The notes under the pieces: model-generated | Seen by the model: the letters and a program-made list of their open reading frames with translations, nothing else | Databases searched by the model: none | What the model was told of the DNA's origin: nothing | Position numbers and translations under genes: made by a program | Origin: Candidatus Thorarchaeota archaeon | GTDB taxonomy: Archaea > Asgardarchaeota > Thorarchaeia > Thorarchaeales > Thorarchaeaceae | Assembly: GCA_048882485.1 (NCBI GenBank) | Contig: JBHLRP010000011.1 | Location: 8,015-72,014, forward strand | Length of the DNA stretch: 64,000 nucleotides | Reading direction: 5' to 3' | Shown here: positions 39,007 to 44,087 of the stretch, one piece after another | Layout of the letters: the number at the start of each line of letters is the position of its first letter | Numbering within the stretch: the stretch's first letter is position 1

Positions 39007-39780
39007 GTGAAGGTTTCTGCGATGCAAGAACGTCTCCAATCTGAACTCTTCGCCTCAATAGCAACCCTTGACCAGCTGAAGAAGATGTTCGACATGGGCA
39101 TAGTCGACATCAGATCCTATCAGAGGGAGTCTGAAGCACTGGCCAGTGAGGTAAAGGCGAATATTGCAGACCTGAAGCGCATCGGTCTAGATTTCGGCAC
39201 CTTCATTCAGACTGAACGTGTTGCAGAACGATTCCCTGATGCTATTATGCTGCTTGACATTTCCCGACGTGAAAATAGATACCGTGGCGACGGCATGACA
39301 ATGGATGAATATTATGACCACATTGGCCTCGCGATTCTTGATGTGGCAACTGTACATGCATCCAAGGGACTCATGGGACTGGCTGAACTGATTGTTGAAG
39401 TTGTGAAGCGCATGCCTGAGCTAAAGGCAATAAGCTATAGTGATGTAATTGAGGCTGTCAACCGTGTAGCTGAGCACGGGCTAATCCCTGGAATTCGGAC
39501 TCTGCGCGGTGGCGTGAAAGTTGTCGAGCTCCGCCCGCTTGAGCTCCGGAGGGACCAAGCGGATGTGGTGAACCTCGCTGCATCAAAAGGCTATGTTTCC
39601 GTTGAAGAAGTAATGATGCTTATGAAATGGTCTGAGGATCATGCAAGGCAAGTCCTATCCAGTCTAGTAGACGCCGGTATGGCAGTGGCAGACATTCGAT
39701 TCTCAACCGGGGGCAGATACTACTTCCCAGGTCTACGTGCTAGGGACTCCAGCGATGGTGGACCTATCTCACGGCGATAG
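39007..39780 (+). CDS. ESCRT-II Vps22/36 (EAP30)-like protein with N-terminal Vps28-core-like segment
   Basis: aa 101-243 tandem winged helices (EYYDHIGLAILDV, PLELRRDQADVVNLAASKGYVSV, KWSEDHARQVL, YYFPGL); aa 8-85 SELFASIATLDQLKKMFDMGIVDIRSY; likely start 39022. Confidence 0.88.
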   Translation: MKVSAMQERLQSELFASIATLDQLKKMFDMGIVDIRSYQRESEALASEVKANIADLKRIGLDFGTFIQTERVAERFPDAIMLLDISRRENRYRGDGMTMDEYYDHIGLAILDVATVHASKGLMGLAELIVEVVKRMPELKAISYSDVIEAVNRVAEHGLIPGIRTLRGGVKVVELRPLELRRDQADVVNLAASKGYVSVEEVMMLMKWSEDHARQVLSSLVDAGMAVADIRFSTGGRYYFPGLRARDSSDGGPISRR

Positions 39781-39781
39781 G

Positions 39782-40504
39782 TTAAACGACAATCTTGATT
39801 GCCCCTTTCTTCTTATCCACCCAATCTGCAAGTCCTTTCTCTACCATTATTAGGAGTATCTGATGAAGGTCCTTCTCTGGCAGTCTAGCGAAGCTATACT
39901 CCTCTTCCTGAATGACTATTGATTTGACATCTAGTCTAACCTTTCCTGACTTCAAAGCCCATTCATAGATAATGTCCGCCCATTCCTCAAGGAATCTCCA
40001 GTAGACTCGCAATTGTCTTCGGTTTCTATCCAACCATTCTGCAATTTCTTTCTCAACAAGCACATTGCCAATTAACTTGAAAGAATCAATCTTATTCGTA
40101 ATATCGTTGAAGGGGGGCTCCTTGATGAAGGCGGTCACGGATAGGACATGAACATCATGAGCTTCCATCCATCTAAGAACGAAATCAGACCACTCTTCAG
40201 CCCACATGTTTCTGTCTTCTTCTCGAGGAGGTATACCATACATCCACTCCGTCTGTGTAAGATCTCCCCAGGGAGGCATGATGACAACTTCTTCCGTTTC
40301 GACTAAAACCTCCTCGGCTTCTACAGTTTCTTCGACAGCAGTGTCTGTTTCCACTTGCGTAATAACAACTTCTGGCTTGTGGATTTCCTCTGCTTCTTCA
40401 ATCTCTTCGACAGGAATTACTTCATCTACAGTGGGTTCTGCTGTTGAGGTTTCTGACGTAGTCTCTTCCTTCTCCTTCTCCCTACGTCTTTCTCTGACAC
40501 CCAC
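39782..40504 (-). CDS. vps25: ESCRT-II Vps25-like protein with acidic N-terminal extension
   Basis: WMYGIPP..WAEEWSDFVLRW, PPF, VYWRFLEEWADIIYEWA, GLADWV tandem winged helices; context beside Vps22 and Vps4. Confidence 0.85.
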   Translation of the reverse strand: MGVRERRREKEKEETTSETSTAEPTVDEVIPVEEIEEAEEIHKPEVVITQVETDTAVEETVEAEEVLVETEEVVIMPPWGDLTQTEWMYGIPPREEDRNMWAEEWSDFVLRWMEAHDVHVLSVTAFIKEPPFNDITNKIDSFKLIGNVLVEKEIAEWLDRNRRQLRVYWRFLEEWADIIYEWALKSGKVRLDVKSIVIQEEEYSFARLPEKDLHQILLIMVEKGLADWVDKKKGAIKIVV

Positions 40505-40507
40505 TCC

Positions 40508-41731
40508 CTAGGAACCCTCCGCCCAATCGATATACCTCTTAACATCCTCTGGAGAAGTTGCTGGCCTTATGTTCTCAATCGCCTGCAGGAAATCCTCTCT
40601 GGATACAGGTCGAATATTAATGATCTTTTCTTCATCATCCATTCTTCCAGTACGCTGTAGGTCCCTTATTGGCTCCATGGCTGCTTCTCTACAGACGACA
40701 CTTATATCGCGTCCACTATAGCCCTCACTGAGGTCCGCAAGCTCCTCATAGTTGACTTCGGGAGCGACTTCTATCTCTTCCATGTGGATCTCGAAGATTC
40801 GCTTTCTAGCTGGCTTATCTGGGAGGGGCACGTGAATCTTCTTCTCAAACCTTGACCGAAGAGCGAAATCCAATTCCCATGGTAGATTTGTTGCACCAAT
40901 AACTGTGACCCTATCTTCAAGATCACTGGCGAGTCCCTGCAGCTCTGTTAGAAGCTGAGTCTTGAGTCTTCTTTCTCCTCCAACATCATCACCTGACCTA
41001 GAAACTCCGACAGAATCCAGCTCGTCCATGAAGACTATGGCAGGCTGATTTCGTCTGGCCAACGTGAAGAGATTCATGACTAGTTTCTCAGACTCACCAA
41101 GCCACTTGCTCACAATGTTGCCTGCTGAAACGTTGAAGAAAGTGGCATTCACCTCGGATGCCACTGCTTTTGCGATCAATGTCTTTCCACATCCCGCAGG
41201 ACCGTAGAACAATATTCCTCTCCAAGGCTGACGAGACTTCCCTTTGAAGAGCTCTGGATGCTTCATTGGCGCAATAATCGCATCATGAATTGCCTGCTTG
41301 GCATTCTCCAAGCCTGCAACGTCGCTCATCTTGACCTTAGGTTTCTCAGTGATGATTGTGTCAGCTATCATCTCCTGCAGTCTTCGGGTATCTTCATCAA
41401 CCTCAGCTTCAGAAGCTGTTGCTTCCGTAGACTTTTCCGCTGTTGGCTCTGCTTCAGCAGGAGAAAACACTGGCGGCGTTGTCAAACCATCTGGAGGGCC
41501 TCTCGCCTTCTTCTTTATTCCAGAGATATAGCGGACTCTGTCAACACACTCTTGTGCCCTGTCAAGGTAATGTTTCTGGACTGAGGGCAGAGATGCTGCA
41601 TTTGACAGTTTGATCAGAATTTTGCTTGCTTTCAGATAGTACTGAGCAGCTTCCTTCTTCATTCCTCTCTGGTCAAGCTCTATGGCCTTGTCAAGTAGGT
41701 TTTTCAAGCCCTGGTCTAATCTATCAGACAT
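40508..41731 (-). CDS. vps4: Vps4 AAA+ ATPase (MIT plus AAA)
   Basis: MIT (KAIELDQRGMKKEAAQYY), DVAGLE, PWRGILFYGPAGCGKT, SKWLGESEK, FMDELD, RRLKTQLL, GATNLPWELD, GYSGRDI. Confidence 0.95.
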   Translation of the reverse strand: MSDRLDQGLKNLLDKAIELDQRGMKKEAAQYYLKASKILIKLSNAASLPSVQKHYLDRAQECVDRVRYISGIKKKARGPPDGLTTPPVFSPAEAEPTAEKSTEATASEAEVDEDTRRLQEMIADTIITEKPKVKMSDVAGLENAKQAIHDAIIAPMKHPELFKGKSRQPWRGILFYGPAGCGKTLIAKAVASEVNATFFNVSAGNIVSKWLGESEKLVMNLFTLARRNQPAIVFMDELDSVGVSRSGDDVGGERRLKTQLLTELQGLASDLEDRVTVIGATNLPWELDFALRSRFEKKIHVPLPDKPARKRIFEIHMEEIEVAPEVNYEELADLSEGYSGRDISVVCREAAMEPIRDLQRTGRMDDEEKIINIRPVSREDFLQAIENIRPATSPEDVKRYIDWAEGS

Positions 41732-41835
41732 CCCTGTTCAGGTCTAACTGGAACCCGTGATGATAATAAGTTCTGTGTGACTATCACTATATGCCGCTAA
41801 TACTGGGATTGATAGATACTGTACACCAGCTCTAC

Positions 41836-41847
41836 GAAGGTTTAAAC
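41836..41847 (+). promoter_or_regulatory. Candidate BRE/TATA box for the ESCRT-III gene
   Basis: GAAGGTTTAAAC about 45 nt upstream of the start codon, in the divergent vps4/ESCRT-III intergenic region. Confidence 0.35.
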
Positions 41848-41891
41848 GCTGAACATTCATCCTAGTGTTGTAGGGCGAAATCCCTAGCTAA

Positions 41892-42515
41892 GTGGTGAGA
41901 CTTTTGGATTCACTCAGAAAGGCATTCAGATGGGGTCGGAAAAAACCCGACATTGGAGAGGTTTCCAGCCAACTCAGAATTCTAACGAAACAACTTGCCC
42001 GTGAGAGAAACAAGTTGGAGAAGGAAGAACGTGATACAAGGGCGCGAGCTATCAAGGCTCGCCAAGCTGGACAAATGGATGCCTTCAAGACCTATGCAAC
42101 TGAGATGGTACGTTTCAGAAGATATGCGCTCTCTACAGACAAGGCACGGCTTCAGATTCTCAAAATCCTTACCCATCTCAATCGTGCACAGACATCGGCA
42201 AGAACAGGCCGCGCACTCGAGGAGGTGGCAAAGATCCTCGGAATGCTTGGCGATACAAGTGACACCCGCAGGCTTGTTGAGAATGTTGATGAGATTACTC
42301 GTCGACTAGACGAATTCGAGATTGAGAGCGCTATATCTGCAGAGGCGCTTGATGCAAGCATGGAAGTCAGTTCAGATGATTTAGCTGCAGCTATGCAGGA
42401 GATAGATGTGGAAGTCGGATTAGCTGATGCAGCATCCGTGGCAGCTAGGCCTGCGTCTGAATCGGAAACTCTTGAGAAAGACATTAAGGATTTGGAGCGT
42501 GAACTGGGCATCTAG
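41892..42515 (+). CDS. ESCRT-III subunit, Vps2/24/46 (CHMP1-3) class
   Basis: Basic helical hairpin QLARERNKLEKEE..KARQAGQMDAFKTYATEMVR, acidic C-half, terminal MIM1-like LEKDIKDLEREL; divergent from vps4. Confidence 0.9.
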   Translation: MVRLLDSLRKAFRWGRKKPDIGEVSSQLRILTKQLARERNKLEKEERDTRARAIKARQAGQMDAFKTYATEMVRFRRYALSTDKARLQILKILTHLNRAQTSARTGRALEEVAKILGMLGDTSDTRRLVENVDEITRRLDEFEIESAISAEALDASMEVSSDDLAAAMQEIDVEVGLADAASVAARPASESETLEKDIKDLERELGI

Positions 42516-44087
42516 TTACCATCTGTACCCATGACCATGCCTTGTTGCACGCTCGATTTCACGATTGGTCTGATATGAGTCGCGCATGAGACCCCGATAT
42601 CTTCTGATGAAGTCTTCAGGGACCAAGTGTCCGTTTCTCATTAGATGTAGAGTTTCGTTAATCGCATTTTGAATCTCTAGTGCGTTTCTCCTGAGATATT
42701 CCATATCAGATTCGGCAGTTGTATACGAAGGGTCTCGATAGTACCCTCGTCCATAGTCCGTGCGTCCAAGAGTGTCCTCAAGATGCTCCTTGAACGCTTT
42801 AGGATGGTCATAAGGATTCTCAATTCGCCCATATCTTGATGGAGCTGGTCGTGGCTGATAGAATTCAGTTCTCCTAGGATATCCTCGCTGTACTTCTGAG
42901 GCATTTCCAGTTGCGGAGAGCAATGAGTATACCAATCCCTCTATCTTGAGTCTGACATCGCTAATGTTGAGGTTCTTCTGCTCGATTTTTCGAACTCTCT
43001 GAAGATCACTCTGCATATACTTCTCAAACTTCCTCGCAATCTCAAAATAATCTGGCATGACCTTTTTTGTTTCCTCGCTGCAGGAGATCTTCAAATCGCC
43101 CTGTTTTAGTCGCAATACAATTCTCTTGCGAAGTCGACCATCTTCTTCGATATCTTTCAAATACATCAGTGGAAACTGGAATACAATCTCAGTCTTCTTG
43201 CGTAATCTTCCTGTCTCAGCTACTAGGAATAGCCTCTTGTTTGTGATGAAGAGTGTGCCGTAGGCTTTGTCATTTTTCAAGAAGTTGCTACCTACAACCT
43301 TGATGTCCGGCAGAGCAGCTACAGGCAATTCATTAACAGATAGCTCGCCATGTTCATAGAACTCTGCGAATTCCTGCCTATGATAGCTCAGACCATCAAG
43401 TTGCGCCATTACTTCCTGCAGTCTTGGTCTGACCTCATGAAGGCTATCATCGACATGTTGCTTGTAGTACGTGCCGAGCTCTGATACTCTATTTCTGACA
43501 CCTTCAATGAAGGGGAACTGAGCAGGAGTCCACTTGCTATAGTCAATGAGGCCTTTTGTTTCAGCAGCGATTTGCTTTGCTACTATCTCAGCTTGATTTC
43601 CAATTCGGCTCTTGATTGCAGGCATCTCATCCTGCACTGACTCGACTTTTTCCTCTATCCAATGATAATGTAGGAAGTTAGCCATCCTGAGAGATACAAG
43701 CGTTCTTTTGGCATTATCAAGCTTGGTCATGAACTCTCGCAATTTGGTATGGCCGTACTGAATGCTCATGATGGCTTGCCTAAGCTCTTGAGCCAGAGTT
43801 CGTCGTTTCTCTTCCAATAGGATTATGCGACTTGAGTGGCATCGAGGACAAATGTCAGCTGTGCGTCTACCTGTGTCAATGTTCTCAGATTCACACTCAG
43901 GACAGCTTTCTATCTCTTCGCCCTGTAACGTTGTCAATGTTGCGTGACACTCACGGCACATGTGATACTCTTTGGTTCTTGAGTCAAGGCACTCTGAGCA
44001 TAGCACAGTCCCACAATCTTCACACAAGTGACTGGCTCTGTTTCTTTGACAGACAGGACAGCGATGAGATGAGGAGTCTAGTGTCAA
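42516..44087 (-). CDS. B-box/Zn-finger, coiled-coil, PH/GRAM-like, Vps23-steadiness-box-like protein
   Basis: CPVC..H.CEDC..LCSEC plus three CxxC pairs (aa 10-83); helical aa 90-240; GTLFITNKRLFLV (aa 277-289); NAINETLHLMRNGHLVPEDFIRRYRGLMRDSYQ (aa 474-506). Confidence 0.7.
   Translation of the reverse strand: MTLDSSSHRCPVCQRNRASHLCEDCGTVLCSECLDSRTKEYHMCRECHATLTTLQGEEIESCPECESENIDTGRRTADICPRCHSSRIILLEEKRRTLAQELRQAIMSIQYGHTKLREFMTKLDNAKRTLVSLRMANFLHYHWIEEKVESVQDEMPAIKSRIGNQAEIVAKQIAAETKGLIDYSKWTPAQFPFIEGVRNRVSELGTYYKQHVDDSLHEVRPRLQEVMAQLDGLSYHRQEFAEFYEHGELSVNELPVAALPDIKVVGSNFLKNDKAYGTLFITNKRLFLVAETGRLRKKTEIVFQFPLMYLKDIEEDGRLRKRIVLRLKQGDLKISCSEETKKVMPDYFEIARKFEKYMQSDLQRVRKIEQKNLNISDVRLKIEGLVYSLLSATGNASEVQRGYPRRTEFYQPRPAPSRYGRIENPYDHPKAFKEHLEDTLGRTDYGRGYYRDPSYTTAESDMEYLRRNALEIQNAINETLHLMRNGHLVPEDFIRRYRGLMRDSYQTNREIERATRHGHGYRW

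Follow-up and report, generated by a model that had tools for sequence, protein, structure and literature searches.

A Vps28-like N-terminal domain joined to the winged-helix core of Vps22 in Thorarchaeota

We describe a protein from a Thorarchaeota (Asgard) genome that we regard, with good confidence, as a chimera in which the N-terminal core of the ESCRT-I subunit Vps28 is followed by a short flexible linker and by the tandem winged helices of the ESCRT-II subunit Vps22. By profile comparison, the Vps28-type domain replaces the ordinary N-terminal helical domain of Vps22, and the C-terminal four-helix bundle of Vps28 is missing. The protein most likely hard-wires ESCRT-I to ESCRT-II and would thus be a covalently coupled ESCRT-I/II adaptor. 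Its gene lies in the window, a 64,000-nucleotide stretch of contig JBHLRP010000011.1 (assembly GCA_048882485.1), and its closest homologs carry the name Candidatus Thorarchaeota.

The fusion gene and the domains that it encodes

A tight block of five genes occupies positions 39007-44087 of the window and comprises the fusion ORF (+), Vps25 (-), Vps4 (-), an ESCRT-III gene of the Snf7 family (+) and a gene for a 523-aa Zn-ribbon/PH/coiled-coil protein (-). This ESCRT block lies between housekeeping genes, one for a class II (D/K/N-type) aminoacyl-tRNA synthetase and, at the opposite end, one for TldD/PmbA. The Vps25 gene (39782-40504, -; Pfam ESCRT-II, 59.2 bits, aa 88-188) is convergent with the fusion gene, and the stops of the two genes are one base apart. 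Vps4 follows as an AAA ATPase with matches to the MIT, AAA and Vps4_C domains (40508-41731, -), then the Snf7-family gene (41892-42515, +; Pfam Snf7, 44.1 bits) and the gene for the 523-aa protein (42516-44087, -), which ends in a steadiness box and corresponds to Znr_PH_CC_SB of Makarova et al. (2024; PMC10936438) and to "SB" of Hatano et al. (2022; PMC9192718). The same layout, in which the fusion gene is directly flanked by the Vps25, Vps4 and Snf7-family genes, is found in a genome from a sister family (G112). We also observed that the Vps25 of the window carries an acidic, low-complexity N-terminal extension of ~85 residues ahead of its ESCRT-II domain; extra N-terminal subdomains in Asgard Vps25 have been mentioned by Makarova et al. 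(2024; PMC10936438).

The ORF of the original prediction (39007-39780, +) is real and encodes 257 aa if translated from its GTG codon, with the stop at 39778-39780. More than 100 homologs start at the residue matching M6, so the ATG at 39022, which gives a protein of 252 aa, is probably the true start rather than the GTG at 39007. The C-terminal two thirds of the protein is, as judged from sequence, an ordinary Vps22 core (aa 99-239; 39301-39723, +). Pfam EAP30 (PF04157) matches aa 74-229 with 54.1 bits against a cut-off of 26.8, in an alignment that opens only at profile position 57, and a phmmer search of PDB sequences retrieves human SNF8/Vps22 (3cuq_A, 2zme_A) at E 1e-16 over aa 97-243, in agreement with the earlier assignment of aa 101-243 to EAP30/Vps22. 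The AF2 model contains two winged helices, for which Foldseek ranks human and yeast Vps22 first (2zme_A, 3cuq_A and 1u5t_A, E 4e-10 to 6e-7, with 2zme_A at E 4e-10). The closest relatives of this core outside the Thorarchaeota are ordinary Asgard Vps22 proteins of ~240 aa, and the fusion is the single EAP30 match above the cut-off in its own genome.

The N-terminal part of the protein (39022-39270, +) is an ~80-residue domain of the Vps28 N-terminal core, or "steadiness box", type. Two helices (aa 7-29 and 35-58) form its hairpin, and three short ones come after it (aa 63-83). The original prediction had aligned aa 8-85 with Vps28 by eye; this likeness is far beyond chance. We compared an alignment of 44 N-termini of Thor-type proteins (A1) with an alignment of 17 full-length Asgard Vps28 proteins drawn from our genome survey (A3), and hhalign matched the two at 99.3% (E 4e-20) over 80 columns, placing A1 columns 4-83 on Vps28 columns 23-102, which are exactly the N-terminal domain of Vps28. 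BLASTP against one Asgard Vps28 gave E 6e-11 at 32% identity. Pfam VPS28 (PF03997) was matched by 35 of the 44 A1 members at profile positions 2-59 (best E 3.8e-5), a search of the same N-termini with Pfam EAP30 matched 0/44, and the best four matches of the A1 profile among PDB sequences were yeast Vps28-N chains. The window's own N-terminus alone scores 13.2 bits on Pfam VPS28 (E 0.079), under the cut-off, and the case therefore rests on profile and structure comparison.

The AF2 model of the 85 N-terminal residues (pLDDT 90.7) shows the hairpin and then the three short helices. Foldseek matches of this model to the PDB included nothing at E <=0.001 (best E 0.029), with Vps28-N chains throughout the top 10 (TMq 0.67-0.80). 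This ranking was confirmed by an exhaustive VIA-align search, which put human VPS28 (6vme_E; Z 11.4, 79 residues at an rmsd of 2.3) first and yeast Vps28 (2caz_E; Z 8.8) second. The comparison with structures that had been proposed for aa 1-95 thus returned human and yeast Vps28-N as best matches. Unrelated hairpins reached Z <=7.9 in the same search, values of 6-8 were obtained for hundreds of chains, and the hairpins of Vps23 and CdvA (Z ~7.1) spanned the first 56 residues only.

The fusion protein is without two modules of its presumptive parents. The first is the N-terminal helical domain of Vps22 and Vps36, which corresponds to EAP30 profile positions 1-56. The second is the C-terminal four-helix bundle of Vps28, whose absence from the protein had been claimed beforehand; the residues after ~aa 95 are winged helices. 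Between the two retained halves, a disordered linker at aa 86-93 (39262-39285, +) marks the fusion junction, with pLDDT <50 at model residues 81-88 and low conservation in alignment A4.

Predicted coupling, docking partner and alternative readings

In eukaryotes, the hand-over from ESCRT-I to ESCRT-II is non-covalent and runs from the C-terminal domain of Vps28 to Vps36. To our knowledge, Asgard archaea have no Vps36, the eukaryotic receptor for Vps28. In the fusion, the hand-over would be a peptide bond. We propose that the Vps28-N hairpin packs on the steadiness-box hairpin in which the neighbouring Zn-ribbon/PH/coiled-coil protein ends, which would form an ESCRT-I-type headpiece, and that the winged helices bind Vps25, as in known ESCRT-II; Vps25 would then recruit ESCRT-III, on which Vps4 would subsequently act. 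Covalent coupling fits a streamlined pathway, since both ubiquitin and UEV-Vps23 have been reported missing from Thorarchaeota (PMC9192718; bioRxiv 10.1101/2023.07.25.550441).

The 523-aa neighbour has DZR/B-box-like Zn ribbons in its N-terminal part, matches a bacterial PH domain weakly at aa 273-326, and also contains a coiled coil and, at its C-terminus, a hairpin that is strongly conserved. This hairpin, which makes up the last 70 aa (42519-42728, -), resembles the steadiness box of the Vps23 core: Pfam Vps23_core (PF09454) was matched by 11 of 23 homologs in hmmscan (best E 4e-4), and a profile of the neighbour's C-terminus found weak matches to the yeast Vps23 core among PDB sequences. 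A search of the own genome with PF09454 found nothing at E <=1, and a search of it with the A5 profile returned the neighbour itself and no other such steadiness box. In a complex model, the Vps28-N domain and the neighbour's C-terminal hairpin reached an ipSAE of 0.75 against 0.00 for the best control, a value that may reflect model memory because the Vps23:Vps28 cores are solved structures; 58 of 80 solved complexes attained the ipSAE mark, as did 2 of 110 mismatched pairs. Contacts were 100% concordant between runs, with a partner pLDDT of at least 83, and in the modelled interface helix 1 of the Vps28-N domain uses its invariant A, A, T and L residues, among others, to pack on the steadiness box's second helix. 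The steadiness-box hairpin of the neighbour is the predicted docking partner of the Vps28-N domain as modelled, which is a likeness and not proof of binding.

The Vps22 N-terminal helical domain holds Vps22 and Vps36 together in eukaryotes. The loss of this domain from the fusion (hhalign 0.8% between A1 and ordinary Vps22 N-termini) is compatible with an alternative that we consider unlikely, namely that the Vps28-N hairpin mainly dimerises the protein as a substitute for the lost domain, rather than linking it to an ESCRT-I-like partner. Steadiness-box hairpins are oligomerisation modules, and the Thor "Vps22" that self-interacts in yeast two-hybrid assays (Hatano et al., 2022; PMC9192718) is this fusion, with a sequence that starts MHERLHSELFASIATLDQLKK. 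However, the modelled pairing with the neighbour's steadiness box is confident, and in solved ESCRT-I cores Vps28-N partners Vps23 and not itself. Dimerisation through the hairpin and coupling to ESCRT-I are not mutually exclusive, and the hairpin could serve either or both.

A far less credible alternative, to which we give almost no weight, takes the N-terminus for an ordinary Vps22 helical domain whose likeness to Vps28 is generic helical-hairpin similarity. The segment is about as long as its counterpart in human Vps22 (~95 against 90 residues), and helical hairpins give many middling structural matches, as the hundreds of chains at Z 6-8 illustrate, but the Vps28 match spans the hairpin together with the three short helices and attains Z 11.4 against 7.1 for the Vps23 and CdvA hairpins. 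We used alignment A2, made from the N-termini of 23 Vps22 proteins (~240 aa) of eukaryotes and non-Thor Asgards, and found no detectable similarity between A1 and this helical domain (hhalign 0.8%, against 99.3% and E 4e-20 for Vps28-N). The ordinary N-termini of A2 in turn gave 0.3% with the Asgard Vps28 proteins of A3. Within A2, the N-termini of non-Thor Asgard Vps22 align with the eukaryotic helical domain, and Pfam EAP30 is matched by 14 of the 23 members and Pfam VPS28 by 0/23. These comparisons refute the assignment to an ordinary Vps22 domain, and aa 1-95, for which this comparison had originally been suggested, prefer Vps28-N.

Outside the window, the source genome encodes a 767-aa paralog (G000 contig 2, 96516-98816, +; L053:1017-3317). 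It carries an Ig-like/CarboxypepD_reg segment at aa 459-538, an ordinary Vps22-type N-terminal helical domain at aa 554-625 (hhalign against A2 84%, E 7e-6) and a weak EAP30 winged-helix match at aa 618-746. The helical-domain profile matches an ORF of ~780 aa in 51 of 61 Thor genomes, and similar proteins of 760-805 aa are present among the remote homologs. The layout of this ~770-aa paralog is Vps36-like, and the fusion may have it as a partner. As a second Thor protein with a Vps22-type helical domain and winged helices, it may bear on what Thor ESCRT-II is made of.

Distribution and origin of the fusion

We surveyed 251 Asgard genomes with the A1 profile, which gave one match per genome in nearly all matched genomes. 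In the Thor family, a strong match (115-141 bits) to an ORF of ~250-280 aa was obtained in 54 of 59 sampled genomes and in the source genome. The strong match in the sister-family genome G112 is the same fusion and adjoins Vps25 and Vps4. Matches in other Asgard families were weaker (47-74 bits) and coincided with a canonical Vps28 gene of ~210-230 aa that is found by PF03997. Together with homologs in more than 120 protein clusters (90% identity) from NCBI, JGI, ENA and Logan assemblies, these results establish that the fusion is conserved beyond its source assembly, a point that the original prediction had asked to be checked. An assembly or gene-calling artefact that joined two adjacent genes, through a frameshift or mis-join that could in principle mimic a fusion given that vps28 and vps22 are adjacent in other Asgards, has a negligible probability and is refuted by this recurrence in independent assemblies: the same ~250-aa frame without internal stops recurs in these clusters and family genomes, and a mis-join would have kept the C-terminal domain of Vps28 and the N-domain of Vps22, both of which are missing from the protein. 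In one Thor genome (G155:C13:104460-104687), we observed a TGA that breaks the frame of the fusion gene after ~106 aa, which could be a sequencing error or a pseudogene.

No canonical Vps28 was found by profile searches in the fusion-carrying genomes, which are metagenome-assembled and 52-99% complete. PF03997 found nothing convincing in the Thor family, with weak matches in 5 of 59 genomes, of which the three inspected are to coiled-coil proteins. A profile of the Vps28 C-terminal bundle (A6) had no match in any of 61 Thor genomes, whereas all 5 control Asgard genomes were matched. Weak PF03997 matches in the own genome and in four relatives (E 1e-5 to 3e-4) were considered as candidate Vps28 genes. 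Those of the own genome and of three relatives sit in coiled-coil proteins of 425-441 aa, and that of the fourth relative (G112) is the fusion. With the exception of G112, we treated these matches as coiled-coil noise, because the copy in the own genome is unrelated to the Asgard Vps28 profile (0.09%). This copy is a 427-aa coiled-coil protein (G000 contig 10, 52046-53326, +; L001:1309-2589) for which several members of the genus show weak, collinear PF03997 matches of up to 25.6 bits, and hhalign detects no relation between it and Asgard Vps28. Its PF03997 match is likely a false positive and a trap for automated annotation. A different arrangement was seen in another Asgard family (f9), where ORFs of ~790-830 aa carry the Vps28 C-terminal bundle only (PF03997 positions 87-187; e.g., G165:C17:630243-630536) alongside a canonical Vps28. 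These ORFs are probably among the multidomain Vps28-C proteins that Makarova et al. have described.

Gene order in other Asgards offers an explanation for how the fusion arose. An ordinary vps22 lies immediately downstream of vps28 on the same strand in 29 of 30 Vps28 loci, with gaps of ~14 to 450 nt; the one exception is truncated where its contig stops. One deletion between the adjacent genes could therefore have made the fusion. Its end points would lie just past the Vps28-N domain and near codon 95 of vps22, with loss of the 3' half of vps28, a short spacer and some 95 codons at the start of vps22. The junction falls on the sole disordered, poorly conserved stretch of the protein (model residues 81-88). 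In a tree of the N-domain, the fused copies are all on one side of a branch with support of 91/88, which is compatible with, though no proof of, a single origin of the fusion, given the shortness of the domain and one long-branched row.

The original prediction also read the fusion as a covalent bridge, or "Rosetta stone", of the ESCRT-I/II interface. We take this reading as an inference, which is backed by the adjacency of vps28 and vps22 in other Asgards and by published yeast two-hybrid assays in which Vps28 and Vps22 of Asgards made contact (PMC9192718). More tentatively, and with low confidence, we suggest that the modules lost in the deletion were exactly the two that in other Asgards bind each other, namely the Vps28 C-terminal bundle and the Vps22 N-terminal helical domain, so that the chimera would mark an ancestral, pre-Vps36 ESCRT-I:ESCRT-II interface, and that the Thor fusion may pair with the ~770-aa paralog as a Vps22/Vps36-like heterodimer, in which case the paralog would be an Asgard precursor of Vps36, a protein that Asgards have been reported to be without.

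Comparison with known ESCRT systems

A natural chimera reduced to the Vps28 N-terminal domain and the winged helices of Vps22 shows which parts cannot be spared. Its five adjacent genes could also provide a small, tractable system for reconstituting an ESCRT-I/II/III cascade from a lineage reported to be without ubiquitin.

The architecture of the fusion was already published in 2024, and its novelty is low. Makarova et al. (2024; PMC10936438) stated in mBio that Asgard Vps22 family proteins (cog.002769) "are fused to an SB", and Table S3 of that study aligns residues 1-70 of KXH75178.1, a Thorarchaeota Vps22, with the VPS28 N-terminal domain (PF03997; HHpred 99). KXH75178 is the positional ortholog of the fusion gene, since its locus has KXH75180 as Vps4 and KXH75181 as ESCRT-III. 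Hatano et al. (2022; PMC9192718) used the ortholog ThorAB25_09030 as plain "Vps22", together with ThorAB25_08990 (SB), 09000 (ESCRT-IIIA), 09010 (Vps4) and 09020 (Vps25), and the five genes of the window locus are in the same order as ThorAB25_08990-09030. Between KXH75178.1/ThorAB25_09030 (asCOG cog.002769) and the protein described here we see the same architecture, the same five-gene locus and no architectural difference.

Our analysis adds modestly to these reports. Whereas the SB fusion was stated for Asgard Vps22 generally (PMC10936438), the profile comparisons find the Vps28-like N-terminus in the Thor type only, and the replacement is, on these comparisons, a trait of the Thor lineage rather than of Asgard Vps22 at large. 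Further additions are that no separate Vps28 or C-terminal bundle was found beside the fusion, that a docking partner can be predicted, and that the gene order in other Asgards would explain the origin of the fusion.

Relative to the Vps28 of eukaryotes and other Asgards (PF03997; PDB 2F6M, 2CAZ, 2P22, 6VME), the N-terminal core is homologous in profile and in predicted fold, but the fusion is without the C-terminal four-helix bundle that contacts ESCRT-II through Vps36, and two winged helices follow instead. With Vps22/SNF8/EAP30 and ordinary Asgard Vps22 (PF04157; PDB 3CUQ, 2ZME, 1U5T), it has in common the tandem winged-helix core and the neighbourhood of Vps25, Vps4 and ESCRT-III. The N-terminal helical domain that packs on Vps36 in eukaryotic Vps22 (EAP30 positions 1-56) is replaced in the fusion, and other Asgard Vps22 proteins have, unlike the Thor fusion, a helical N-domain of the eukaryotic type. 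The nearest parallel is the UEV-Vps23-Vps28 fusion of Heimdallarchaeia (Hatano et al., 2022), which likewise places ESCRT subunits that are separate in eukaryotes in one polypeptide. The Heimdallarchaeia fusion stays inside ESCRT-I, whereas that of the Thorarchaeota crosses the boundary that separates ESCRT-I from ESCRT-II and drops the modules in between.
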